From NCBI GenBank assembly GCA_965226885.1, contig CBDDEL010000011.1, positions 32,001 to 96,000 on the forward strand: a stretch of DNA of 64,000 nt, written 5' to 3'. Origin of the DNA: Opitutales bacterium. GTDB lineage: Bacteria > Verrucomicrobiota > Verrucomicrobiia > Opitutales > UBA2987. The translations under genes were made by a program, and so were the position numbers. Of this stretch, positions 4,956 through 25,526 are shown piece by piece. The first letter of the stretch is position 1. Every line of letters starts with the position of its first letter. The notes under the pieces are model-generated. The model was given only the letters and a program-made list of their open reading frames with translations, had not been told where the DNA came from and searched no databases.

Positions 4956-5468
4956 ATGAACGTTTCAAACCTGCAGCATATCGATTATAAACAGCTTGGA
5001 AAACTGCAAAAATTGGCTCTCTTTATGATCGTAATCGGGCCGGTCGCAGCATCCGAACTGTTAAAATTCTTCGAAGATCCCGATATCGAAATGATCTGCC
5101 GGGAAATCACTACTTTCAAAATCATTGACAGGTCCATCCAGTCGCAGACGGCCGAAGAATTTGCTGAAATCATTGGCGAAAGCCTTAACGCCATTTTGGG
5201 TGGACCGAGTTTTGCCCAAAAAGCGTTGGAATTGGCCAAGGGCGACTACCAGGCTATTAATATGCTGGGCCGCATCGCTCCCTTGGGTAATTCCTCCGAA
5301 GTCATTAAAGATGTTAGCGAGATGGAACCGGGGCAAATATATAACCTGATTCGCAACGAGCAAGCTCAGACCATCGCTTTTGTCATCTCCCATCTCAGCC
5401 TGGAAAAGGCCACTAACATGCTCACTATGCTTACTCCCGATCTTCGAGAGGAAGTAATCGAACGGATT
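4956..5468 (+). pseudogene. fliG: Flagellar motor switch protein FliG, 3'-truncated by an IS3-family element
   Basis: FliG N and middle domains (GGPSFAQKAL, NEQAQTIAFVISHL); ends at IS terminus TGATCGGACCCC at 5469. Confidence 0.88.
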
Positions 5469-5581
5469 TGATCGGACCCCATCTTTGCTACCACTTTAAG
5501 TGAGAGTATTTCCGTAGGTTTGGTATTGTAGGTTTTGCAGCGGGTGGCGCAATGAGGCCGTAGGCCGAATGGAGCCAGCCG

Positions 5582-6384
5582 GGTAGTGTATAAAAAAAGA
5601 ATGTTATTTTGTATTTTTAGCTGTACAAATAGCGTTAGGCAGTTTATTTTTAGTGCATGGTTACTAAAATTATTAATTGTCGGCACTGTGGAAGTGAAAA
5701 TATCATTAAATTTGGCAAGACGCCCAACCATAAACAGCGCTACCGCTGCCATGATTGTGGTAAACAAAGCCGCAAAACCCCACAGTGAAATACACCGAAG
5801 AGCAAAAAGAAATGATCCTTCGAGTCTATCAGGAACGCAGCAGTCTACGCGGTTTACAGCGCGCCTTCGGGGTGAGTCCCAACACCGTTTTGAGTTGGTT
5901 AAAAAAAACGACAATCGCTGCGACCGCTCAAAAGCACGATTCTTGCGGCCCGCCGCCATGATGTCATTGAACTGGACGAACTGTGGTCTTTTGTGGGGCG
6001 CAAGAGCGATGCCCAATGGGTCTGGATCGCTCTTTGCCGACGCACCCGTCAAATCCTCTCCTATGCCATTGGGCCTCGGGATTGGTATCGTTGCCGGGAA
6101 CTTTACGAGCGTCTGCCACGGGCCTACAAAAGATGTGCCACCTACAGCGACTTTTGGAGCACTTATGATGAAGTCTTTCCTCATAACCGATCCGTGGGAA
6201 AAGAGAAACCGGTGAAACGGCCCATGTGGAACGATGGAACAATACCCTGCGCCAACGACTGGGTCGTTTCACACGCAAAACCCTCTCCTTTTCCAAGCTT
6301 AAGAGTATGCATGAAACCTGTCTGAGACTTTTCATTCATCAATATAATCAAGAATTAGCCACCATTCCTACTTAATACACTACC
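5582..6384 (+). mobile_element. IS1-family element, copy 1 (frameshifted)
   Basis: IR GGTAGTGTAT/ATACACTACC; small indels relative to the other three copies break insA and insB. Confidence 0.9.
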
Positions 6385-6563
6385 AATCCCGCTTTGTGAT
6401 CTTCCTGGATTATGACCAGTGAATCGTCGATGGCCTTTTTTATTTTATCCCGAAATGCACTTTTTTCATCATTACCGGTTCCTCCGAAATCCATTTGACT
6501 GGCCATGGAACGATTGCCAACCGATTTGGTGTAATTCTCAAGGGATCTCTCTTTAGAACGTTT

Positions 6564-7365
6564 GGTAGTGTATAAAAAAAGAATGTTATTTTGTATTTTT
6601 AGCTGTACAAATAGCGTTAGGCAGTTTATTCTTAGTGCATGGTTACTAAAATTATTAATTGTCGGCACTGTGGAAGTGAAAATATCATTAAATTTGGCAA
6701 GACGCCCAACCATAAACAGCGCTACCGCTGCCATGATTGTGGTAAACAAAGCCGCGAAAACCCCACAGTGAAATACACCGAAGAGCAAAAAGAAATGATC
6801 CTTCGAGTCTATCAGGAACGCAGCAGTCTACGCGGTTTACAGCGCGCCTTCGGGGTGAGTCCCAACACCGTTTTGAGTTGGTTAAAAAAAACGACAATCG
6901 CTGCGACCGCTCAAAAGCACGATTCTTGCGGCCCGCCGCCATGATGTCATTGAACTGGACGAACTGTGGTCTTTTGTGGGGCGCAAGAGCGATGCCCAAT
7001 GGGTTTGGATCGCTCTTTGCCGACGCACCCGTCAAATCCTCTCCTATGCCATTGGGCCTCGGGATTGGTATCGTTGCCGGGAACTTTACGAGCGTCTGCC
7101 ACGGGCCTACAAAAGATGTGCCACCTACAGCGACTTTTGGAGCACTTATGATGAAGTCTTTCCTCATAACCGATCCGTGGGAAAAGAAACCGGTGAAACG
7201 GCCCATGTGGAACGATGGAACAATACCCTGCGCCAACGACTGGGTCGTTTCACACGCAAAACCCTCTCCTTTTCCAAGCTTAAGAGTATGCATGAAACCT
7301 GTCTGAGACTTTTCATTCATCAATATAATCAAGAATTAGCCACCATTCCTACTTAATACACTACC
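6564..7365 (+). mobile_element. IS1-family element, copy 2
   Basis: IR GGTAGTGTAT/ATACACTACC; intact insA and insB. Confidence 0.92.
6639..7356 (+). CDS. IS1 transposase InsA/InsB (programmed -1 frameshift at A8C near 6884-6892)
   Basis: Zn ribbon CRHCGS..RCHDCG and HTH, then [31 protein letters not shown]. Confidence 0.88.
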
Positions 7366-8061
7366 GCCAGCCGCTGCTTTGTTGATTGTTCGCCAGAGTC
7401 TGGCAAATGTATTTGGGGAGAGAAAGCCTAATCGGCTGTGGGGGTGTTTCGCGTTGTATTTGTGTCGCCATTGTTCGACCACCACACGCGCTTCGGTCAC
7501 GCTCAGGAACAGTTCCTGATTAAGGCATTCATCGCGCAAACGATTATGAAAGGATTCTATATGTCCATTCTGCCAAGGGCTTCCTGGATCAATGTATGCA
7601 ATGGCAATTTCCTGCCGCTGCAGTTCTTCTTTGACTTGGTGGGCTATAAACTCCGATCCGTTGTCCGAGCGGATGCACTGAGGTTTGCCGTTCTCTCTTA
7701 TGGCATCGTTCAATACCTCTACCACATCGGCACTTTTCAGTGAGCGCGCAACCTTAATGGCCAGGCATTGACGGGTATGTTCATCGATCAGTGTCAAGAG
7801 CCTGAGCGGACCGCCCCGGTCGGTGCGATCCGCCACGAAGTCCCAACTCCACACATGGTTGGGCTGCACTGCTCGGGTCGGGGTAGCCGTGGATTGGCCC
7901 TGCCGGCGACGGCGCTTGCGAGACGGGCGCACACCCAGTCCTTCGAAACGACGCACTTTTTGGACGAATTTGCGACTCACGGGCCAACAAAGCGCGGATC
8001 CGACGATAGCCATAGCGCGGATGCTTCTTCGAAAAGGCAATGATGCGTGCCACCAGTTTAT

Positions 8062-8616
8062 CAAAAACTATCCGGATAGCCATCTGGTGGCGGAGAGCCA
8101 CTTTCTGCTGGCCAATTCTTATAAACGCCTCAAAAGGCCGCGTGAGGCGGTGGCGGAAACGCTCAATTTCGTGAGGCGGTGGCGGAAACGCTCAATTTAT
8201 TACGTAAAAACCTGATCAATCGTAAGACGGATGAATCGTTATGGTTTTATTGGAAAAAGAGAACGGGCAACCAACTGGCCAATGAATTTTATGAGCAAAG
8301 CGATTTTTTAAGCGCCCTGAAAATTTACCAGGCAATGTCGCCGCTAAACAAGGATCCAGAGTGGCAGTGGCCCAGAATTTACCAAATTGGATTGTGTTTC
8401 GAGCGTTTGCGGATGCTGCCCAAAGCGCGCGAGGCTTACCGTCTTCTGGTTGAAGAAGAGGAGTGGGAAAATAGCCAATACGATCTCAATGAAAACCTTC
8501 AAACGATCAAAGAAATGGCTATCTGGCGGTTGGGGCATATTGATTGGCTCTCAAAAACGGAGTCCGGCATATCGAGTTTATTGGCCACTTCCAAAGAAAC
8601 CGAAATTTTAAATTAA
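8062..8616 (+). pseudogene. 3' remnant of a TPR-repeat protein gene, frameshifted by a 29-bp duplication
   Basis: FIKNYPDSHLVAESHFLLANSY and IYQIGLCFERLRMLPKAREAY TPR-like helices; 5' end fused to the IS3 fragment. Confidence 0.7.
8141..8198. repeat. 29-bp perfect tandem duplication
   Basis: CGTGAGGCGGTGGCGGAAACGCTCAATTT x2. Confidence 0.95.
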
Positions 8617-9077: not shown

Positions 9078-9644
9078 TTAATAACTGTATGCAGGCTCCC
9101 AATCATTAATGCCGTCGGCCAAAAGGTTGATCAGGTGCCAGGTTCCGCAAAATAGATCCATGATGGGCCCAAAAAAGGCCTGGGCAACCCTGTAAATCTC
9201 CCCATTTCCATCCTTCCAAAATGTGGAGACGCCCGGCCACCAACCATCTTCTTTTTTAAAGCCCATATCCTCAATGAAGCTGGAATCTTCGCCGGAGAGC
9301 ATTTTGAATTTCCATCCTCTGGATTGAGCGAATTCCCTTTGGGTTTGCGGACTGTCGGGTGAGACTACGACAAACCCAGCCCGGTTTTCCAGGTGTTGCC
9401 AGACGCCGTTAAAACCATCCGCCCACAGTGTGCAATAAGGGCAACTTTTGCCCATGTTATGAACAACAATGAGATCCCGTTTATCGCCAAAAAGAGAGGA
9501 TAGCTTTACCGTGGCGCCGGTTTCGTTTGTCAGCTCATAATCCTGAACTTTTACTTTTTCTGCCTTCCGTTTCAATTCCGCCAATTGCCGCGATTTTTCC
9601 AGCAATTCGGTTTCCAGGTTTTGTATGGTTTCTTCCGTTGTCAT
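9078..9644 (-). CDS. DUF899-family thioredoxin-like protein
   Basis: N-terminal coiled coil, LSSLFGDKRDLIVVH, CPYC motif, GVSTF. Confidence 0.8.
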   Translation of the reverse strand: MTTEETIQNLETELLEKSRQLAELKRKAEKVKVQDYELTNETGATVKLSSLFGDKRDLIVVHNMGKSCPYCTLWADGFNGVWQHLENRAGFVVVSPDSPQTQREFAQSRGWKFKMLSGEDSSFIEDMGFKKEDGWWPGVSTFWKDGNGEIYRVAQAFFGPIMDLFCGTWHLINLLADGINDWEPAYSY

Positions 9645-9719
9645 TGTTTTTTAGTTAATTTTTGCGTATTTGCATTTTTCGAGAATGCGACTGCAAACCT
9701 GCATGCTGATTATGGTGCC

Positions 9720-9885
9720 CACCGACCGGCCGATCCAATAGCGCCCCCGATTAATTGCGACACGATATTGGCGATTCCATGAGAGGCTTTCTCTTTGCCG
9801 ATGCTCATCAAACACAGAGTAATGGCCGGATTTATCTGGCCTCCAGATATATTCATGGTGGCAGTAACCGCCAACCTTGGCCAAT
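9720..9885 (-). pseudogene. Aquaporin (MIP family) internal fragment
   Basis: NISGGQINPAITL..IVSQLIGGAIGS is the first NPA box plus the following helix; no start or second half. Confidence 0.7.
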
Positions 9886-9985
9886 CGAAAAAAGGCTTCC
9901 AGCCCTTTATATATTGGGTATTCCGTTTATTCATGAAGCTTACAGGCCATCCACCGTTTGAACATTACAGGGAATAAAAGCGTAT

Positions 9986-10064
9986 TGAAAGCAGAAAATT
10001 GGATCGAAATATTGGAAAGTAGCTATTTACAACGATTATGAATGTTCAAATGGGAAATCTCGGT
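9986..10064. repeat. Dispersed ~80-bp repeat, copy 1
   Basis: Aligns with 39874-39953; core GAAAGTAGCTATTTwCAACGATTATGAATGTTCAwATGGGAA. Confidence 0.85.
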
Positions 10065-10150
10065 CGGATGCCATATCCGTTCTGGAGAAGGTGGGTGGCA
10101 AATCTGTGACGAAACGTGCGGAAAGTCGGGTTGACATTTTTCGGGGTATG
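10065..10150 (-). pseudogene. Tyrosine recombinase (integron-integrase-like) box II relic
   Basis: KNVNP..TFRHRFATHLLQNGYGIR resembles HTFRHSFATHLLxxGYDIR. Confidence 0.6.
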
Positions 10151-10216
10151 TCCAGTGTGTACTTCATCACTTTTTAAGGATTCATGATCCTTGGTTACAG
10201 AACAGGTGGGTAATAA

Positions 10217-12439
<2,223 letters not shown>

Positions 12440-12694
12440 TCTCTGCGAGGTGCTCGTAACGGTCATCTCCAGGCGGCCATGGGCGAGGTAGTTGGACGAT
12501 AGGCGTTTAATTAATTCGCTTGCATAAAGGATAAAAGGATAAACAACAATTTATAATAGTTACTCTGGTTGTAGGCATAGATGATTTGAGTGAGTTATTT
12601 ATCCTTTTGTCAGGCTAGGCAATTCCGGGAAGTCTTTCATCTGCCAAAGCCCAGATTATTATATTTGAAGAAACATTCAAAAGGAGGAAAAATA

Positions 12695-13621
12695 ATGGCT
12701 ATTCAAATTGGAAAACCTGCCCCTGACTTCGAGGTAGACGCATGGATACGAGGCGCTCATGGGCCACGGAAGGTAGCTCTTTCCCAGCCCAGGGGAAAAT
12801 GGGTGGTTCTATTCTTCTACCCGCGAGACTTCACTTTTATCTGCCCAACCGAAATCGCAGCTTTTGGTGACTTGCAAGAAGACATTGAGCGTGAGGATGC
12901 CGTCGTCATTGGCGCGAGCACAGATAGCTTCTATACTCACAAAGCCTGGTTCGAGTCGGATCCTCGGCTCAAGGGGATAAATTATCCTGTCCTGGCGGAT
13001 ACATCCCAAAAAGTGTGCAGGGATTTCAATGTGTTATTAGATGACGGGGCAGCATTGCGGGGCACATTTATCATCGATCCCGAGGGCATCGTGCGACACA
13101 TCACCGTAAACGAACTTGATGTTGGCCGTAACGTTGACGAGACATTGCGGGTCCTTCAGGCATGGCGCATCGGTGAGCTTTGCCCGGTGGGATGGAAGCC
13201 CGGTCAATCAACCCTCACGAGCTATGACGAGTGGTTGGCCAAAGCCCTGCCTCGCCTATCTAAAGAGGTTTTGGTGAAGACAACGGAGGAGTTGCAGACC
13301 GTCACTTACTCTGCCGGTGAGACCGTGTTTGAGCAGGGCGCTGCCCCGGATCACTTTTATATTGTTGTGAGTGGGGAAGTCGAGGTGATCCGTCACAGTC
13401 CGAGCGGAGAGGTGAAGATTTTGGCGACTCTTCAAGCAGGTGACTTTTTCGGTGAGATTGGTTTGCTTACCGAAGCTCGACGAATGGCAACGGTGCGCGC
13501 CAAGACCGATCTTGAAGTGCTGTCCATGGATTGGGAAATGTTCAGGAAAGTGGTGCAAACCTCTGAGTCCACGGCAGCGGACTTTGCAGAAATCATGCGT
13601 GAAAGGTTGGCAAAAGCCTAA
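12695..13621 (+). CDS. 2-Cys peroxiredoxin (AhpC/Prx1) fused to a C-terminal cyclic-nucleotide-binding domain
   Basis: AGGAGG RBS before ATG 12695; FYPRDFTFICPTE and ELCPVGW; then FEQGAAPDHFYIVVSGEVEV..GDFFGEIGLL..RRMATVRA. Confidence 0.9.
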   Translation: MAIQIGKPAPDFEVDAWIRGAHGPRKVALSQPRGKWVVLFFYPRDFTFICPTEIAAFGDLQEDIEREDAVVIGASTDSFYTHKAWFESDPRLKGINYPVLADTSQKVCRDFNVLLDDGAALRGTFIIDPEGIVRHITVNELDVGRNVDETLRVLQAWRIGELCPVGWKPGQSTLTSYDEWLAKALPRLSKEVLVKTTEELQTVTYSAGETVFEQGAAPDHFYIVVSGEVEVIRHSPSGEVKILATLQAGDFFGEIGLLTEARRMATVRAKTDLEVLSMDWEMFRKVVQTSESTAADFAEIMRERLAKA

Positions 13622-13794
13622 CCAGGTACGCTGTATTTTCTCGTAATTCCTTGACAAGCAAATGTAGTGAAAGTAGGCAGTCAAGTTTTACTGAAATAGG
13701 CTGGACGATTTTCAGATTCTCACCGTGGGAAGAAAACTGGCTGTCTGTGCTTTTTTAAACCGTGAAAACCTGACCTGTAACCCAAGTGGAAAAA

Positions 13795-14409
13795 ATGAAA
13801 AAATTATACCTATTGCCGGTTGTGGCCACTCTTGTATTGTCATGTCATAAAATTCAAATGGCCTCTGTAAGTTCGGGCAGCGAGGCCCCGGACTTCACCC
13901 TTTTCGATACAAAAGGCGTTGAGCGTTCACTGTCCGATTTTAAGGGCAAGTATATAATCCTGGAATGGACGAACCATCAATGCCCTTTTGTCCGCAAGCA
14001 TTATGGAAGCGGGAACATGCAAAACCTGCAAAAATATTCTTTGCAGAAGGGTGCCGCTTGGTTGACCATACTTTCGTCGGCGCCGGGGTTGCAAGGCCAT
14101 GTTTCACCCGAGAAGGCCGATTCTCTGATGAAGGAGAGCGGAAGCCAGCCGACCACCTACCTGTTCGACACCGACGGGCGGGTGGGCAGGCTTTATGGAG
14201 CCAAGGCAACACCGCATATGTTTGTCATCAATCCGGCCGGGAAAGTTGTTTACCAAGGCGCCATCGACAGCATTCGCTCTTCCGATCCCGACGATATAGC
14301 GATTGCCAAAAATTATGTGCGTATCGCCTTCGCCGATGCTTTAGCGGGCAATCCAATCGAAGTGACCGATACTCAGCCTTATGGCTGCAGTATTAAATAT
14401 GCGAGGTAA
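13795..14409 (+). CDS. Secreted or lipoprotein AhpC/TSA-type redoxin (Prx-like)
   Basis: Signal peptide ending VLSC; APDFTL, EWTNHQCPFV, TPHMFVI, YQGAID, YGCSIKY. Confidence 0.85.
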   Translation: MKKLYLLPVVATLVLSCHKIQMASVSSGSEAPDFTLFDTKGVERSLSDFKGKYIILEWTNHQCPFVRKHYGSGNMQNLQKYSLQKGAAWLTILSSAPGLQGHVSPEKADSLMKESGSQPTTYLFDTDGRVGRLYGAKATPHMFVINPAGKVVYQGAIDSIRSSDPDDIAIAKNYVRIAFADALAGNPIEVTDTQPYGCSIKYAR

Positions 14410-14691
14410 TGGGCCGTTGGCGAATCGGACGAGTAATATAAATCAGGTTAAATCGATTCATCCTGATTAGCCGTCAGATTATCTACTGGCCGGCTGCTGG
14501 CCGGATCGACCAGAGCGTCGAAGATGAGGCGAATTTGCCCGATTCGAGCGCGAATGCGCACGATATCCAATTCGCCATTTTTATTTACCAGTATCCGCAA
14601 GTAGAGCGGTGGGTAGCGGTTGAACTTCTTCAAATGCAATCGCTTCAGTTCGGTGGTGTGCAAACGGTGCATTTCCACCAGTGAGGCTGTA

Positions 14692-15823
14692 ATACCAAAT
14701 CGCAAAAGGATTGATAAAGATTAAAAAACAGCTATAAAGGCGGAATGAGAAGATATATGGGAACCGATGAAGACCGTGAACGTATCAAGAAATTGCTCAA
14801 CAAAGAGGCTGTCGGCTGGCGTAAAGAGCGTTTGGTGGCATTAAAAATGGGCTTCCAGCCGCACCACAGCATTGATGAAATTGGAGCCATCGTGGGCCGA
14901 GGCAAAGCGACGATCCAGCGTTGGTTTGACAAATATCGTGCTGCAGGGCTCGGGGCGGTGCTTACACGCGCCTACAAAGGCGGGATCAAAAGCCGTTGCG
15001 ACAAAGAGGTGGAGGCCTTCTTGCTCAATGGTTTGAAGGTCGCGCGCTGGAACACAGCCGTTCAGGCGGGGCAAGAGCTGGAGCGACATTTCGGGCGCTC
15101 CTTCGCCTACAAGACGGTGTGGCGATGGCTAAAAAAATGCGCCGGGGTGCTTCGAGTCCCTCGCCCCGTGCATGAGAAACGGGACTCGGCAAAAGCGGAA
15201 GCGTTCAAGCGAGACTTTTTTAAGATCCTCCAGGAGCTTTCCCTCACCCGAGGCAATCGGGTTCGGGTGTGGTTTGCCGATGAAAGCCGTTTTGGTTTGC
15301 TTCCGGTGTACCGCCGGTGCTGGACGCAAAGAGGGCTTCGGCCGCACAAAAAATATCAGACAAGATACCAGTGGAGCTACTGTTACGGAGCCCTCGACGT
15401 GGTCAACGGCGAGATGGTATGCATCCAAACCCCTAGCACGAATCTACAGTGGACGGAGGCTTTCCTCCAACAGATCAAAAAGCAATATCCTGAGGAGGAA
15501 CATGTGGTTGTATGGGACGGGGCAGGCTTCCATCCGCACGACTCGGAGCACCCCAACGTCCCCCCGGGCATACATATCGTGAATTTGCCGCCGTATAGTC
15601 CTGAACTCAACCCGATTGAAAGACTTTGGGATATGATACAGGATCAAACGGCCAACAAACTGTGGCCGAGCATTGAGCGACTCGAAGAAGTCGTCGCAAC
15701 CCATCTCAAAGACTGGTGGGAGGACACTGAAAAAGTCCTCTCTTTAGTTGGCGGAGGCTGGCAGCACATTCAAGCAAACGCTTCTGCCAAATAACTTATT
15801 ATCATACCTAATGAGATTTGGTA
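14692..15823 (+). mobile_element. IS630-family element
   Basis: IR TACCAAATC/GATTTGGTA; TA(A) target duplication. Confidence 0.9.
14745..15794 (+). CDS. IS630-family transposase
   Basis: HTH plus WFADESRFG, VWDGAGFH, LPPYSPELNPIE. Confidence 0.93.
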   Translation: MRRYMGTDEDRERIKKLLNKEAVGWRKERLVALKMGFQPHHSIDEIGAIVGRGKATIQRWFDKYRAAGLGAVLTRAYKGGIKSRCDKEVEAFLLNGLKVARWNTAVQAGQELERHFGRSFAYKTVWRWLKKCAGVLRVPRPVHEKRDSAKAEAFKRDFFKILQELSLTRGNRVRVWFADESRFGLLPVYRRCWTQRGLRPHKKYQTRYQWSYCYGALDVVNGEMVCIQTPSTNLQWTEAFLQQIKKQYPEEEHVVVWDGAGFHPHDSEHPNVPPGIHIVNLPPYSPELNPIERLWDMIQDQTANKLWPSIERLEEVVATHLKDWWEDTEKVLSLVGGGWQHIQANASAK

Positions 15824-20336: not shown

Positions 20337-21138
20337 GGTAGTGTATAAAAAAAGAATGTTATTTTGTATTTTTAGCTGTACAAATAGCGTTAGGTAGTTT
20401 ATTCTTAGTGCATGGTTACTAAAATTATTAATTGTCGGCACTGTGGAAGTGAAAATATCATTAAATTTGGCAAGACGCCCAACCATAAACAGCGCTACCG
20501 CTGCCATGATTGTGGTAAACAAAGCCGCGAAAACCCCACAGTGAAATACACCGAAGAGCAAAAAGAAATGATCCTGCGAGTCTATCAGGAACGCAGCAGT
20601 CTACGCGGTTTACAGCGCGCCTTCGGGGTGAGTCCCAACACCGTTTTGAGTTGGTTAAAAAAAACGACAATCGCTGCGACCGCTCAAAAGCACGATTCTT
20701 GCGGCCCGCCGCCATGATGTCATTGAACTGGACGAACTGTGGTCTTTTGTGGGGCGCAAGAGCGATGCCCAATGGGTTTGGATCGCTCTTTGCCGACGCA
20801 CCCGTCAAATCCTCTCCTATGCCATTGGGCCTCGGGATTGGTATCGTTGCCGGGAACTTTACGAGCGTCTGCCACGGGCCTACAAAAGATGTGCCACCTA
20901 CAGCGACTTTTGGAGCACTTATGATGAAGTCTTTCCTCATAACCGATCCGTGGGAAAAGAAACCGGTGAAACGGCCCATGTGGAACGATGGAACAATACC
21001 CTGCGCCAACGACTGGGTCGTTTCACACGCAAAACCCTCTCCTTTTCCAAGCTTAAGAGTATGCATGAAACCTGTCTGATACTTTTCATTCATCAATATA
21101 ATCAAGAATTAGCCACCATTCCTACTTAATACACTACC
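20337..21138 (+). mobile_element. IS1-family element, copy 3
   Basis: IRs as other copies; 8-bp TSD CGAAAGTG. Confidence 0.93.
20412..21129 (+). CDS. IS1 transposase InsA/InsB (programmed frameshift)
   Basis: Near-identical to copy 2. Confidence 0.88.
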
Positions 21139-21143
21139 CGAAA

Positions 21144-24100
21144 GTGAAAGTATTTAAGATCATCCTGGTTCTATTAGGTGCAGCGTTGATTTTTAGCGGG
21201 TGCATCGCCTTGCTGTTGTTAACCCCATGGATTCAGAAAACGGTGGCCCTGGCCGTTCTGGAGAATAAAGTTGATGGTTCGCTGGAATTGGAAAGTGTTT
21301 ATCTTCTCCCCGGAAGCCTTTCCCTAAAGGGCCTGAAATACTCGGAACAAGGCGTAGAGGTAGCTGCCGAAAAAGCCCGCATTGAATTTTCTCTGGTTCG
21401 GCTCCTGAGGGGAAAGGAGATTAAATTGTCAAAAATTGACGTATCCGGACTGAGTGTGGATGTGTCCGGCATTTTGAAAGAAAGTTCGCAAGTTTATGAC
21501 GCCCAGCCAACCATTCAAACCAGTAGGCCGGTTCCATCGGATATAATTATCAAGCCGGGCAAAGAAACTTTTGCAGGGTTATTGCCCTATACCGACATCG
21601 GTTATCGATTTTGGGTGGATAGCTTCGCGATAGATGGAAAAATCATCTTCCCGGCTTCCCGTGAAATAGAATTTTTCCTGGTGGGCAGCGATGTGAAACC
21701 CGCAGCCAGTGTTTATTTGAGCCTGACGGGTTCCTTAACCGATCAAAATCCGGGCGCGTCGATCTCAAGTATGAATTTTGATGGAGAATTAATGCTGGAG
21801 CAGAAGGCCGACTCCGGCCTGTCGAAGCTGGAAATTATAACGACAGCCTATGCCAGAGGAGCGGCATTTGAAGGGGAAATTGCCTTACGGAACGAAGTTG
21901 TTATAGAGAAAACTGAAATGGATCGAGAATCCCATCTAATGCGTATGGTATTAATCGACGCCCTGGGTGATGAAAATGTCCTCTTCGATCTGACAGATGA
22001 GTATGATCGACGGGAATCGGGTTTCAGAGGCAATTTCCAACTAAATATGTTCAGCGAGCAGTTAAAACCGTTTGCAATGGGTTTGCCTTTCCCGAGGTTT
22101 ACAGCCGTTGGTTCGGGAACTTTTGATTACTCCATAAAAGAAAGAACGGGGTCTCTGAAAACGATTATCGAGGGACAGGTGGATGAACTTGAGACACTGC
22201 GGCCTGAATTGAAGGAAATTCCTCCACTGGCGCTTCATACCGAAATCGATATTAAAAAGGACGGCAGCAGTTTTTGGATCAACAAACTGGCGGCCACCGT
22301 TAAAAATAGGAAAAATGGAAATAAGATTGCCGAACTCGCCGGCAATTCTCCTTTTCGTATTGATCCCAACGATGACAGCTTTGGGTTCGACCATGTGCGG
22401 GGAAACCTTTTGTTATTTACGCTTGATGAAGTTCCTGCAAATTGGGCCAATGGCTTTTTTAAGGATACGGATAACCTAATTTCCGGCGGCATTATGGGCG
22501 GAGAATTTGCTTTGCTCAAGGATGGGGCTAATTTCAAAATCCTTATGACGAAGCCCTTTCTTGCTTCGGGAATATCTTACGGCAAAGAGGGGAGGGATTT
22601 TCTTAAAAACATCGACGTTGTATTGGGAGGGGACTTCGGCCTAAACCTCACAGGGAAGGAATACAATTTTAATTTTAAGACCGTGGAATTGCATTCCGGC
22701 GGCGTCCAATTACTGGATGGAAACCTTGAGGCAAAACTATATCCGTATGATGATAAACCGGATAGGCTATTGATCAAGGGAAACATCTCAGCCCGTTTAA
22801 ACGAATGGCACAAACAACCTTTCGCGGAAGAAATTTCGGTTCCCTGGGCAGCGCCTCTGACTTTGGAGCAGAGTTTCCAAATGACGCTGGAAACGGATTT
22901 CATCCGCGTGGAAAACCTGATTGGAGAATTAAAGGATGATACGGGTCAAAAATTCTTTAGCGTGGAGTTGCTAAAGCCGGTTAGTTTCCAACAGCCCTGG
23001 GAACAAACATTTCCATTCGGGATGGGCGAATCGGGCGATTTGTTAAACTTAACGTTTACAAATTTTCCGATGGGTTTAATAGATCCCTACCTACCCAGCT
23101 ATCAATTGACCGGCGGACATTTTTCCGGTCAATTCATTATTGCTTCGAATCATGGAGTTATTGAAGCCAAGTCAGAGAAAACCTCATCTTTTAATAATAT
23201 CCATCTGAGTGAACGGGGGCGTCCAATTTTGAAAAATCTTTCCCTCAACCTGGATTCAAAATTGTCATTTCTGCAGAATATATTGAACATTTCCTGGAGC
23301 GGGTTGGAGGCGTACTCGGGGAACGATAATTCCATAAAAAGCAATGGCGAAATGAGCCTTGATTGGAACAGGGAATTTCCTTTGCAGAAAGCTTCCGGGG
23401 ATATTCAGATGGATATTGAGAATTTGGCGCGACAGCCCTTTTTCTCAAGATCATCGATCGCCGATTCTGGATTTGTCGTCATGAACGGAATTTTCAATTT
23501 AAAAGATCAAAATAATTTTTCAGGCCAAGTTCTAATTACGGATATAAAAGCATCGAGCATCCCTGAACATCCTATTAAAAGCGGTGAAATTTCGGTTGAG
23601 GGTAGCTTAGAGAATGATCTTATTATGATGAACGCGCCCATTTCACTGCAAGGGGTTGGTGGCAACTCGGACGCGCGTTTGGAAGTGCGACTTGAACGGC
23701 GGGAAATGGGCGCGAAGTTTTCCATTTCTGTCAAGGGGAATAGGCTTGTTCTGGCAGATGCGATCGCCTTGGCCGCTTTGTTTGACACTAGTAAAAAGGA
23801 GTCCCCTCAGCCCATAAATACTGCCGGAGCGACAAGACTTCCAGCCCCATCGAACTTATTGAGAGAATCGAATCCATTCTGGTATGGATATTCGGGTGAA
23901 GCGCGCATTGATTTCGACAAGGTGGTGTATCCCGGCATAGGCCAACTGGAAGAAGTAAAGGCGGTTTTAAACGCTGACGAACATCGATTATCCTTTGCAA
24001 CAATAAATTCAGGATCGACAAAACAACCATTAGGTATAGCAGGCAAAATAGATTTTATTACGAACCATAAAAAGCCCTATTCGCTGGAAGCCGAAGTGGA

Positions 24101-24938
24101 GGTAGCGAATTTTGACGCGGGATTATTTTTAAGTAAAAGCGATCCTCTTCATAACCCGATAGTGGAGGGAATATTCGATCTGAAGGGAACCTTAGACGGA
24201 GAGGCGGAAAATCTGCCTCGGCTACTGCAAACGGCCCAGGGTAATTTTTTCCTGGAAAGTACTTCTGGCGGCCTCTTCCGTGCACTGCCGTTGAGGGATC
24301 AAAAAGGCCAGGCGGCTTCACTTGCCCTAACTGGACTAGATATTCTCCTGGGCAATAAGGTTCGCGAGTTCAATACGGCTAATAGGGCCGTGATTTTGTT
24401 GCAGGAAATCAAATTTGATGAAATGAAAATCGCAGCGGTTCGAGGATCGGACCTGAATATAAGCCTGACGGATTTGTTTGTCCGGGGGCCGGAAATCATC
24501 CTGGCTGGCGCGGGTGGCGTGACTTACCGGGAAGGAGTGCCGTTTCTGGAGCAGCCATTAATTTTAAATGCGCAAATGGGGGCCAAAGATGAAGCCGCCT
24601 ATCTGCTCAATGAACTAGGTCTATTGATTAATTCCCAAACGGAAGAAGGATATTACCTGGGACCTTCTTTTTCTATAAGAGGAACATTGGGAAATCCCGA
24701 CAAGTCGGAATTAGATCGATTGGTGAGAAGATCTACCTTCGGATTATTGGGAGCGGGCGGCAGGAGAGTGGATTTGGAAAAACAGAGTCAAACCGAAGAT
24801 GCCACGGAGGCGGAAACGACTCCCGGCGGCGATAATTTTCAACAGAAAGAGGGAAGCTCGAAGGAGGAAGTATTCCTGAGAAGCATTTTTAAAATCATCA
24901 CCGATGGACAACAGTTCATCACCGATGGACAACAGTAA
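21144..24938 (+). CDS. AsmA-like large periplasmic beta-strand protein
   Basis: Single N-terminal TM anchor, 1264 aa of amphipathic beta strands, C-terminal FSIRGTLGNP motif. Confidence 0.7.
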   Translation: MKVFKIILVLLGAALIFSGCIALLLLTPWIQKTVALAVLENKVDGSLELESVYLLPGSLSLKGLKYSEQGVEVAAEKARIEFSLVRLLRGKEIKLSKIDVSGLSVDVSGILKESSQVYDAQPTIQTSRPVPSDIIIKPGKETFAGLLPYTDIGYRFWVDSFAIDGKIIFPASREIEFFLVGSDVKPAASVYLSLTGSLTDQNPGASISSMNFDGELMLEQKADSGLSKLEIITTAYARGAAFEGEIALRNEVVIEKTEMDRESHLMRMVLIDALGDENVLFDLTDEYDRRESGFRGNFQLNMFSEQLKPFAMGLPFPRFTAVGSGTFDYSIKERTGSLKTIIEGQVDELETLRPELKEIPPLALHTEIDIKKDGSSFWINKLAATVKNRKNGNKIAELAGNSPFRIDPNDDSFGFDHVRGNLLLFTLDEVPANWANGFFKDTDNLISGGIMGGEFALLKDGANFKILMTKPFLASGISYGKEGRDFLKNIDVVLGGDFGLNLTGKEYNFNFKTVELHSGGVQLLDGNLEAKLYPYDDKPDRLLIKGNISARLNEWHKQPFAEEISVPWAAPLTLEQSFQMTLETDFIRVENLIGELKDDTGQKFFSVELLKPVSFQQPWEQTFPFGMGESGDLLNLTFTNFPMGLIDPYLPSYQLTGGHFSGQFIIASNHGVIEAKSEKTSSFNNIHLSERGRPILKNLSLNLDSKLSFLQNILNISWSGLEAYSGNDNSIKSNGEMSLDWNREFPLQKASGDIQMDIENLARQPFFSRSSIADSGFVVMNGIFNLKDQNNFSGQVLITDIKASSIPEHPIKSGEISVEGSLENDLIMMNAPISLQGVGGNSDARLEVRLERREMGAKFSISVKGNRLVLADAIALAALFDTSKKESPQPINTAGATRLPAPSNLLRESNPFWYGYSGEARIDFDKVVYPGIGQLEEVKAVLNADEHRLSFATINSGSTKQPLGIAGKIDFITNHKKPYSLEAEVEVANFDAGLFLSKSDPLHNPIVEGIFDLKGTLDGEAENLPRLLQTAQGNFFLESTSGGLFRALPLRDQKGQAASLALTGLDILLGNKVREFNTANRAVILLQEIKFDEMKIAAVRGSDLNISLTDLFVRGPEIILAGAGGVTYREGVPFLEQPLILNAQMGAKDEAAYLLNELGLLINSQTEEGYYLGPSFSIRGTLGNPDKSELDRLVRRSTFGLLGAGGRRVDLEKQSQTEDATEAETTPGGDNFQQKEGSSKEEVFLRSIFKIITDGQQFITDGQQ

Positions 24939-24959: not shown

Positions 24960-25526
24960 ATGAAAAATGAACCATTCGGCTCCGTTTTGGGGCCATTAAC
25001 CAAGCCCGCTGCCTTGCCGCCGCTCAACGCTGGTCATCCCGATAAAAATGTCTTTGATGCATTGCACAGGTTAAGCGTGAAAAGCGCATTTGAGAATAAA
25101 CCGGTGGAGGATGAATCCATGGCCCGATGCTGTATGGCGGGTCTATGGCTCCTGCATGGATATTTGGACCAATCGCATCGAATCAGTCAGCATGTGGGCA
25201 GCCCAACGGGAAGCTATTGGCATGGAATCATGCACAGAAGGGAAGGGGATTACGGCAATTCCAAATACTGGTTCCGGCGAGTTGGCAACCACGCTATTTG
25301 GGAACAGTTGGCTCAAGATATCGTTAGAATAATGAAAGAATCTGAAAAAGCCGGAATACTCGCCGTTACTTTTAAAAGTTCTGTCTGGGATCCCTATCAT
25401 TTTGTCGATTTGTGCGAGGAGTTCGCGGGAACCGGCACGGATATGGAAAAGAGATTGCAAGAGGCACAAATGCGGGAATGGGAACTGCTTTTCGCTTATT
25501 CCTATCAGGAGGCGTTGGGTATTTAA
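24960..25526 (+). CDS. Conserved hypothetical protein
   Basis: SHRISQ..SYWHGIMHRREGDYGNSKYWFRR conserved-looking motif; follows the AsmA-like gene. Confidence 0.7.
   Translation: MKNEPFGSVLGPLTKPAALPPLNAGHPDKNVFDALHRLSVKSAFENKPVEDESMARCCMAGLWLLHGYLDQSHRISQHVGSPTGSYWHGIMHRREGDYGNSKYWFRRVGNHAIWEQLAQDIVRIMKESEKAGILAVTFKSSVWDPYHFVDLCEEFAGTGTDMEKRLQEAQMREWELLFAYSYQEALGI

Follow-up and report, generated by a model that had tools for sequence, protein, structure and literature searches.

The 64,000-nt stretch of DNA analysed here (hereafter the window) comes from a 17-contig assembly of an Opitutales bacterium (GCA_965226885.1, contig CBDDEL010000011.1, positions 32,001 to 96,000), and it encodes a protein in which a typical 2-Cys peroxiredoxin is followed, in the same chain, by a cyclic-nucleotide-binding (CNB) domain. 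The gene for this peroxiredoxin-CNB fusion (protein P0001) runs on the plus strand from an ATG at 12695 to a stop codon at 13619-13621, and its 308 codons contain no internal stop. A ribosome-binding site containing GGAGG, AAAGGAGG, lies 7 nt upstream of the ATG, which confirms the uninterrupted frame with a strong ribosome-binding site described in a first-pass annotation of the window. Called mechanically, the open reading frame (ORF) begins at a GTG at 12590 and comprises 343 amino acids, but 12695 is taken as the real start because the aligned homologues all begin at the ATG position.

Public contigs cover the join between the two domains. Two public runs from different studies (X1 and X2) each contain one 1573-nt contig that covers 12414-13986 with 0 differences to the window, and one of these DNA runs may be the source sample of the assembly. 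A contig from a third study (X6) spans 12512-13252; it carries 4 substitutions and lacks 8 nt at 12526, a position that precedes the fusion ORF. X6 additionally matches 13256-13457 exactly. A stop codon or frameshift between the domains, which the first-pass annotation had named among the observations that would refute it, is absent, and the contigs of two studies span the junction identically. An RNA-library contig of 182 nt (X9, 13194-13375) also crosses the junction, with 1 difference; it is only a hint that the fusion gene is expressed, since DNA carry-over is possible.

The N-terminal half is recognised by the Pfam family AhpC-TSA (PF00578) over residues 5-136 with an E-value of 6e-36 (123.5 bits, cut-off 26), and a PDB sequence search aligns residues 4-175 with human PRDX2 (1qmv_A) at ~50% identity (E 2e-51). 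In the predicted structure this half matches PRDX2 with a Foldseek TM(target) score of 0.81 and PRDX3 (5jcg_A) with a VIA Z score of 24.6 (root-mean-square deviation, rmsd, 3.0; 187 residues aligned). The P-x3-T-x2-C motif (P43, T47, C50), the catalytic R122 and the ..CP..W.PG motif of the resolving-cysteine arm (C163) are all present, the latter aligning with the EVCPAGWKPG segment of PRDX2, which we take to hold the resolving cysteine of that enzyme. The protein thus resembles the typical 2-Cys peroxiredoxins PRDX2 (1qmv) and PRDX3 (5jcg) in the P..T..C motif, the catalytic arginine, the ..CP.GWKPG motif and the fold, but differs from both in having a 130-residue CNB domain where they have a short tail, and from PRDX2 also in a four-residue gap in the fusion at the segment that is GGLG in PRDX2. 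A tail helix with a YF motif is a feature of typical 2-Cys peroxiredoxins. Unlike a strict AhpC, the fusion scores 147 bits against the NCBIfam model TIGR03137 (cut-off 272), in a host genome without an AhpF match over its cut-off, and it also stays below the cut-off for PrxU (148 bits against 270). This half looks functional, and we predict from its motifs a catalytically competent, cytoplasmic typical 2-Cys enzyme.

The C-terminal half matches Pfam cNMP_binding (PF00027) over residues 203-289 (E 1.7e-27; 95.6 bits, cut-off 27.5), and its phosphate-binding cassette reads FGEIGLL..RRMATV at residues 252-267, with both the Gly-Glu pair and the Arg-x-Ala element. The first PDB sequence match of this half is the PKA RI-beta subunit (4din_B, E 7.4e-27), followed by RI-alpha (to 7e-23) and then by PKG and CRP proteins, whereas the best structural match in VIA is SthK with cGMP (4d7s_A; Z 20.0, rmsd 2.0, 134 residues aligned, model range 172-308), with PKG II CNB-B (Z 19.4), an HCN-type channel (19.2), yeast Bcy1 (3of1_A, 18.8) and a CNB domain solved with cUMP (8jsk_B, 17.1) among the further ones. 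The model behind these comparisons, an AlphaFold monomer built from a 101-sequence alignment (mean pLDDT, the per-residue confidence score, 86.6; pTM, the global one, 0.57), has helices at 179-184, 190-199, 280-289 and 291-307, and eight strands between 201 and 279. The CNB fold and the cassette are shared with CRP/FNR proteins (NCBIfam CRP E 3e-16, below cut-off; structural Z 16-19), but the fusion lacks their helix-turn-helix: the chain stops at the CNB C-helices, residue 308, and Pfam detects no helix-turn-helix or other output domain. There is no cysteine in the CNB half of P0001, which looks functional and is predicted from its sequence to be a complete, ligand-competent domain. The architecture read in the first pass, that is, a complete 2-Cys peroxiredoxin and then a full CNB domain with an intact cassette and no helix-turn-helix, is therefore upheld by Pfam, motifs and PDB matches alike.

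Where the two halves meet, the segment YDEWLAKALPRLSKEVL (residues 177-193) is the counterpart, in PDB alignments, of the N-terminal helix of PKA RI CNB-B, and the VIA matches to CNB domains begin at model residues 168-179. The CNB N-helix begins 14 residues after C163, that is, after a 13-residue spacer, and not a single insertion or deletion was found between residues 33 and 215, hence none between C163 and the CNB barrel, in 101 members diverging to 50% identity. The first-pass annotation had the CNB domain attached at the tail that follows the resolving cysteine and must unfold during catalysis. The attachment point stands, and is even tighter than proposed, but the tail in question is not the old peroxiredoxin tail, since the nearest unfused relatives are short-tailed. 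A solved chain covering both halves was found neither by the PDB sequence search nor by either fold search.

Table 1. Coordinates in the window of the fusion gene, its parts and two neighbouring genes
Feature	Position	Strand	Basis
Ribosome-binding site, AAAGGAGG	12680..12687	+	Read from sequence; 7 nt before ATG
Whole gene, peroxiredoxin-CNB fusion (P0001)	12695..13621	+	Translation; both Pfam domains; identical contigs from two studies
Typical 2-Cys peroxiredoxin half, residues 1-176 (Pfam AhpC-TSA 5-136)	12695..13222	+	Pfam; PDB sequence match; Foldseek; VIA
Codon of peroxidatic cysteine C50 (P43..T47..C50, FTFICPTE)	12842..12844	+	Sequence
Codon of resolving cysteine C163 (ELCPVGWKPG)	13181..13183	+	Aligns with EVCPAGWKPG of human PRDX2
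N-terminal helices of CNB domain, residues 177-200 (YDEWLAKALPRLSKEVL...)	13223..13294	+	Aligned with PKA RI-beta / RI-alpha CNB-B N-helix; joined directly to resolving-cysteine arm
CNB beta-barrel, Pfam cNMP_binding, residues 203-289	13301..13561	+	Pfam; PDB sequence and structure matches
Phosphate-binding cassette, residues 252-267 (FGEIGLLTEARRMATV)	13448..13495	+	Aligned with FGE...R.ATV cassettes of PKA RI
C-terminal helices of CNB domain (hinge, lid), residues 280-308; end of chain, no output domain	13532..13618	+	Model helices
katG, catalase-peroxidase (context only)	10241..12439	+	Pfam peroxidase E 1.9e-75; 255 nt upstream of fusion
Thioredoxin-fold redoxin, hydrophobic N-terminus, ResA/DsbE-like (context only)	13786..14409	+	Pfam AhpC-TSA 5.9e-14; 164 nt downstream of fusion

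Members of the family and the birth of the fusion

The fusion is found in many other genomes, as the first-pass annotation had left to be checked. In a search of a 5.8-billion-protein collection, both Pfam domains were present in 117 of the best 120 clusters examined (54-100% identity), the other 3 being short pieces of 213-227 amino acids. The best 150 matches in a library clustered at 50% identity brought just two more full-length two-domain representatives, P0123 (53%) and P0125 (50%), which makes the family a compact one, and two clusters of the ESM Atlas, with 266 and 138 members, show the same architecture. At the level of genomes, contigs were collected at one genome per species and 80 loci were kept, of which 33 carry the fusion; they belong to at least 7 phyla, and every one is a metagenome-assembled genome (MAG). 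By record title they come from Verrucomicrobia, Acidobacteria, Alphaproteobacteria (Pseudolabrys, Methyloceanibacter, Hyphomicrobiales), Gemmatimonadota, NC10, Binatia and many Thermoleophilia, and numerous carriers are uncultured bacteria from soil metagenomes. A metagenome scan revealed at least 80 fusion loci in one frame, mostly at 71-79% identity. Such titles deserve some caution: the loci L032 and L033 encode identical fusion and upstream proteins but are filed as Pseudolabrys and Terriglobales MAGs, respectively, so that at least one of the two bin assignments is doubtful.

In public annotation, members of the family figure as “redoxin domain-containing” protein, “cyclic nucleotide-binding domain-containing” protein, or AhpC. 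The first-pass annotation knew of no characterised protein with this architecture, and we likewise found no paper or structure on a peroxiredoxin-CNB fusion in the PDB or in a literature search whose coverage extends to few subscription journals. Several candidates were set aside along the way. Three Magasanikbacteria loci (L086, L096 and L100), which match query residues 3-272, rather consist of a 172-aa peroxiredoxin, a stop codon and an unrelated in-frame gene; from the representative search, P0135, P0151 and P0225 do not have the peroxiredoxin-CNB architecture, and P0136, P0175 and P0209 look like truncated or frame-broken copies. A further metagenomic protein, P0131 (351 aa), is of the PAS-PAS-CNB type, with a CNB part that opens with the peroxiredoxin-tail residues GQSTLTSYDEWL and a C-terminal part nearly identical to an NC10 fusion protein; it results either from a domain swap in nature or from chimeric assembly, and is not used as evidence.

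Conservation was counted over the 101 full-length members. The two cysteines C50 and C163 are each kept in 100 of them, R122 in all 101, T47 in 99 and P43 in 96. On the CNB side the cassette residues F252, G253, E254, R263 and A265 are each found in 101/101, as are P186 and, in the last helix, R304, with W180 in 96/101, and the whole CNB half is free of cysteine in 94 of the 101 proteins. Identity to the query in the peroxiredoxin half correlates across members with that in the CNB half (r = 0.83), as expected from two halves that, to judge from their sequences, evolve as one unit. The two most divergent full-length relatives, P0123 and P0125, each a single metagenome sequence, are the exceptions to which we return below.

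Regarding the origin of the fusion, its nearest unfused relatives are peroxiredoxins of 171-180 amino acids that end ~10-15 residues after the resolving cysteine, from sources as disparate as Gaiellaceae, Thermoleophilia, Thermomicrobiales, Nitrososphaerota, Woesearchaeota, Brocadiales and CPR groups, which indicates that the CNB domain became attached to a peroxiredoxin whose tail was already short. The peroxiredoxin domains of 70 loci and of the window were used to calculate a maximum-likelihood tree, leaving out L030, L036, L060, L063, L075, L083, L091, L098, L102 and L103 as partial or broken. Its 29 fused rows form two groups, one of 11 non-actinobacterial sequences and one of 18 from Thermoleophilia, within an unresolved polytomy that also holds unfused rows. 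The best tree needs at least 2 state changes, but the well-supported branches force just one, so that the tree is compatible with a single origin of the fusion. Other C-terminal additions came up in the same searches: a member of the same short-tailed clade from Thermomicrobiales (L058:8001-8927) is a peroxiredoxin with a 130-aa C-terminal extension of no Pfam family, and P0225, mentioned above, is a peroxiredoxin-thioredoxin fusion of 307 amino acids.

In that tree the window protein clusters with sequences from Verrucomicrobia, Pyrinomonadaceae and NC10 (support 99/91). Within its own lineage we could not find the fusion again: in 60 other genomes of the same order the matches stop by residue 205 and correspond to unfused peroxiredoxins ~40% identical, and 400 further genomes, sampled evenly across the phylum, gave no fusion at E <= 1e-60. 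Because the gene was not found in these order and phylum samples and its surroundings are rich in insertion sequences (IS), horizontal acquisition would be the simplest reading for this genome. Composition neither supports nor contradicts it, since the GC content of the gene (52.6%) equals the genome mean (52.2%).

Surroundings of the gene

The region of the window that hosts the fusion bears the marks of mobile elements. Transposase genes lie around it, an IS at 16.2-18 kb has a second copy at 30.9-32.6 kb, and a repeated element of ~1 kb is present in copies at ~5.4-6.4, 6.4-7.4 and 20.3-21.1 kb. The fliG frame (4956-8064 region) ends after 171 amino acids, having encoded the N domain and half of the middle domain, and is followed by two tandem copies of the ~1-kb repeat and an integrase-core gene, with the third copy at 20337-21138; insertion elements thus seem to have broken into the flagellar operon. 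Direct copies of the repeat thus flank the block that contains katG and the fusion. Further downstream, two ORFs located before gyrB, of 1264 (21144-24938, +) and 188 amino acids (24960-25526, +), match no Pfam family at E <= 0.001.

The upstream neighbour katG stands apart in its composition, with 73.5% GC at third codon positions, where the adjoining genes have 56%. The 4 genomes of the same genus gave no katG, but genes 86-90% identical are present in 3/3 genomes of a sister genus, and in the one of these that could be aligned (G008) the DNA similarity ends just past the katG stop codon. katG may be a separate acquisition. Read depth over katG in public runs stems from the katG genes of many organisms and is uninformative for this genome. 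The downstream redoxin reaches an E-value of 3e-08, below cut-off, with the NCBIfam model ResA. A scan of 9600-14800 gave 3 promoter-like and 4 terminator-like sites, not above the means of shuffled sequence (4.0 and 5.5).

Elsewhere in the genome, the other AhpC-TSA matches are at most 33-34% identical to the fusion over residues 1-133, which leaves it as the sole Prx1-type peroxiredoxin. TrxB and two thioredoxins score over their cut-offs, whereas the best match to AhpF, with 198 bits against a cut-off of 502.9, is the TrxB gene itself. There are also 14 class III cyclase matches and 16 CNB matches. A second link between a CNB domain and a peroxiredoxin occurs in this genome (G000:C9, L188:3146-4047, minus strand): the gene for a 124-aa CNB-only protein with an intact-looking cassette is followed, with a 4-nt overlap between its stop and the next start, by one for a 176-aa peroxiredoxin of the PrxQ/BCP type whose N-terminus is hydrophobic. 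The two genes of this kind are adjacent in 5/5 genomes of the genus and in G021; in G009 a partial PrxQ match lies ~1.2 kb away, and 5 other relatives show the CNB gene alone within 1.5-kb flanks.

In other genomes, six-frame ORFs around the fusion loci were clustered, and candidate neighbours were compared by tblastn with 112 fusion loci (657 kb in total). No universal partner gene emerged from the 112 loci, many of which are short, so that absence near the gene is weak evidence. Of the genes that adjoin the fusion in the window, neither katG nor the downstream redoxin recurs (0/112 each), and a DUF899-like gene has 1 weak match in 112. The conserved neighbourhood of cyclases, katG and ahpF that the first-pass annotation suggested looking for was consequently not borne out, a cyclase being adjacent in 1/112 loci and AhpF not having been found. 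That sole cyclase adjacency is in an NC10 MAG (L035:1-963, +), where a gene for a receiver and class III cyclase protein ends 58 nt upstream of the fusion on the same strand. Class III cyclases themselves, wherever encoded, are present in 5/5 other fusion-bearing genomes tested, against 4/14 control genomes.

Some lineages do have neighbours of their own. In the two loci with identical proteins (L032:586-1539 and L033:984-1937), a 318-aa protein with one CNB domain lies directly upstream of the fusion. In 11 Thermoleophilia loci (L047:6712-7983, plus strand, and the same position in L048-L055, L057 and L083), the fusion is directly preceded, on the same strand and with a gap of 15-70 nt, by a gene for a flavoprotein-like protein of ~415 amino acids, with a GAGPVG dinucleotide-binding start, a GDSAIG motif and a conserved CNEYC. 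This protein matches no Pfam family at E <= 0.001 and has weak N-terminal matches to flavin monooxygenases (PDB E 0.1, NCBIfam E 0.004); it might be a dedicated redox partner of the fusion. In 22/112 loci (L028:2513-2914, plus strand, and 21 others, L123, L133, L138 and L141 among them) a gene for a 134-aa protein with no Pfam or NCBIfam match precedes the fusion in the same orientation, at a distance of ~140-170 nt. These loci all fall within one close group (88-100% identical) that includes the Verrucomicrobia-labelled MAGs L028 and L036.

Possible communication between the two halves

Peroxiredoxins are major scavengers of peroxide and also relays of redox signals. The controls on them that we know of are over-oxidation, phosphorylation and oligomerisation, and in the literature we found no report of a peroxiredoxin controlled by a second-messenger small molecule. 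In the typical 2-Cys enzymes the resolving cysteine is carried on an arm lying over the partner subunit, and this arm must move or rearrange for the disulfide with the peroxidatic cysteine to form. In CNB proteins, in turn, the N-helices, the cassette and the hinge move together when cAMP or cGMP binds. The fusion would bring both movements together, its resolving-cysteine arm leading, after a spacer of constant length (13 residues), directly into the CNB N-helices. Cyclic-nucleotide occupancy may then be coupled allosterically to the redox or conformational state of the peroxiredoxin, and cAMP or cGMP could tune the resolution step of the peroxidase, how readily it is over-oxidised and/or its balance between dimer and decamer; the enzyme would probably be reduced by the thioredoxin system. 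Since the CNB half is almost always free of cysteine, a thiol relay is not possible, and any coupling would have to be conformational.

Control of the peroxidase by cyclic nucleotides through the fused domain is the reading that we favour, while putting its chances somewhat short of even, because fused CNB domains act in this way in other bacterial enzymes. In the mycobacterial acetyltransferases Rv0998 and MSMEG_5458, cAMP binding to the fused CNB domain activates the enzyme (PMC5861322). The family of these acetyltransferases (NF058543) resembles the fusion in uniting a bacterial enzyme with one CNB domain and no DNA-binding output, and its NCBIfam model matches the CNB half with an E-value of 9.4e-14, below cut-off. 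Unlike the fusion, they have their CNB domain at the N-terminus and a GNAT catalytic fold, and their regulation is experimental whereas here it is inferred. A source of ligand exists as well, class III cyclases being encoded in 6/6 fusion-bearing genomes examined, the present one included.

Several observations weigh on the other side of the scale. An intact cassette alone does not prove binding of a cyclic nucleotide, nor does the sequence reveal ligand specificity. A cyclase is next to the gene in just the one locus of 112 described above. The monomer model, with a pLDDT of 62-69 over residues 161-180, gives no confident inter-domain geometry. In the two most divergent members a catalytic cysteine is lost and the cassette kept, with Gly in place of C50 in P0123 and Arg in place of C163 in P0125; the CNB part may therefore have a role in some lineages that does not depend on peroxidase turnover. 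Lastly, in yeast the influence goes in the opposite direction: the peroxiredoxin lowers cAMP binding by Bcy1 (PMC8164027).

The yeast case introduces the first alternative, in which the peroxiredoxin half would be the receptor, for H2O2, and the C50-C163 intersubunit disulfide would pull on the CNB N-helices and alter the affinity for the cyclic nucleotide, so that messenger is released or sequestered, or partner binding changed. That study describes a physical interaction between a typical 2-Cys peroxiredoxin, Tsa1, and the CNB protein Bcy1, whose cAMP binding varies with redox state and falls upon oxidation (PMC8164027). The fusion contains the same two domain types as the Tsa1-Bcy1 pair, here in one chain; PKA regulatory subunits are the closest sequences to its CNB half, Bcy1 is among the structural matches (Z 18.8), the protein has no output domain, and the divergent P0123 and P0125 retain the cassette though one catalytic cysteine is lost. 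The fixed spacing and the junction at the N-helix count equally for either direction. The chemistry in yeast, however, is thiol oxidation of Bcy1, and the CNB half here is cysteine-free in those 94 of 101 members; no conserved partner gene was found in the 112 loci; and a buffering role needs high abundance, the only hint of expression being one 182-nt RNA-library contig. PKA R subunits carry a docking domain and a kinase-inhibitor segment. No counterpart of either was seen in the fusion, which also differs from them in having one CNB domain instead of two, a peroxiredoxin as its N-terminal half and no known kinase partner. On balance, we regard this reversed direction as somewhat improbable.

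Less probable again, and in our view unlikely, is that the CNB domain binds some other small molecule or serves as a structural, oligomerisation or chaperone appendage. Many bacterial domains of the CNB fold bind other ligands or none, as in CooA, FNR and CprK. The match to a structure with bound cUMP (8jsk_B, Z 17.1), the rarity of adjacent cyclases (1/112) and the existence of other C-terminal additions on peroxiredoxins, such as the 130-aa extension of L058 and the thioredoxin of P0225, would all suit such a role. The invariance of the ribose-phosphate residues G253, E254, R263 and A265 in 101/101 members is unexpected for a purely structural appendage, though, the closest sequence relatives are true cAMP or cGMP binders, and all 6 fusion-bearing genomes examined encode class III cyclases. 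An artefact, arising from chimeric assembly, a shifted reading frame or read-through between two adjacent genes, might be suspected from a 17-contig assembly with an IS-rich region and from a related protein, P0131, that may itself be a chimera, but it is ruled out by junction-spanning contigs identical in two studies and near-identical in a third, by the 117 of 120 clusters with both domains and the two ESM Atlas clusters, and by the 33 genome and at least 80 metagenome loci in one frame.

Peroxiredoxins have been extended at their C-terminus before, as in the hybrids Prx5-glutaredoxin (1nm3), peroxiredoxin-nitroreductase (4eo3) and peroxiredoxin-thioredoxin (P0225). The domain added in those hybrids is a redox partner or enzyme, whereas the one added here is the fold of a small-molecule sensor without a redox-active cysteine, and it also differs in this respect from yeast Bcy1, which undergoes cysteine oxidation. 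Whichever half is in command, it is possible, albeit less likely than not, that this family represents the first direct link of cyclic-nucleotide messengers with a peroxiredoxin in one polypeptide, either as a cAMP/cGMP-gated peroxidase (in its cycle, its over-oxidation switch or its decamer/chaperone state) or as a redox-gated sponge for cyclic nucleotides.

One recombinant protein lets the question be asked whether cAMP or cGMP gates the removal of peroxide, or peroxide gates the availability of the messenger, and the fusion could supply a natural scaffold for biosensors of peroxide or cyclic nucleotides. If either form of control were true, the mechanism would be ecologically widespread, because the family spans uncultured bacteria of at least 7 phyla, many of them from soil. 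The fusion would then be a natural “Rosetta stone” for the interaction between peroxiredoxin and the PKA regulatory subunit of yeast, and would point to a crosstalk of ancient origin that works through conformation and not through thiols.

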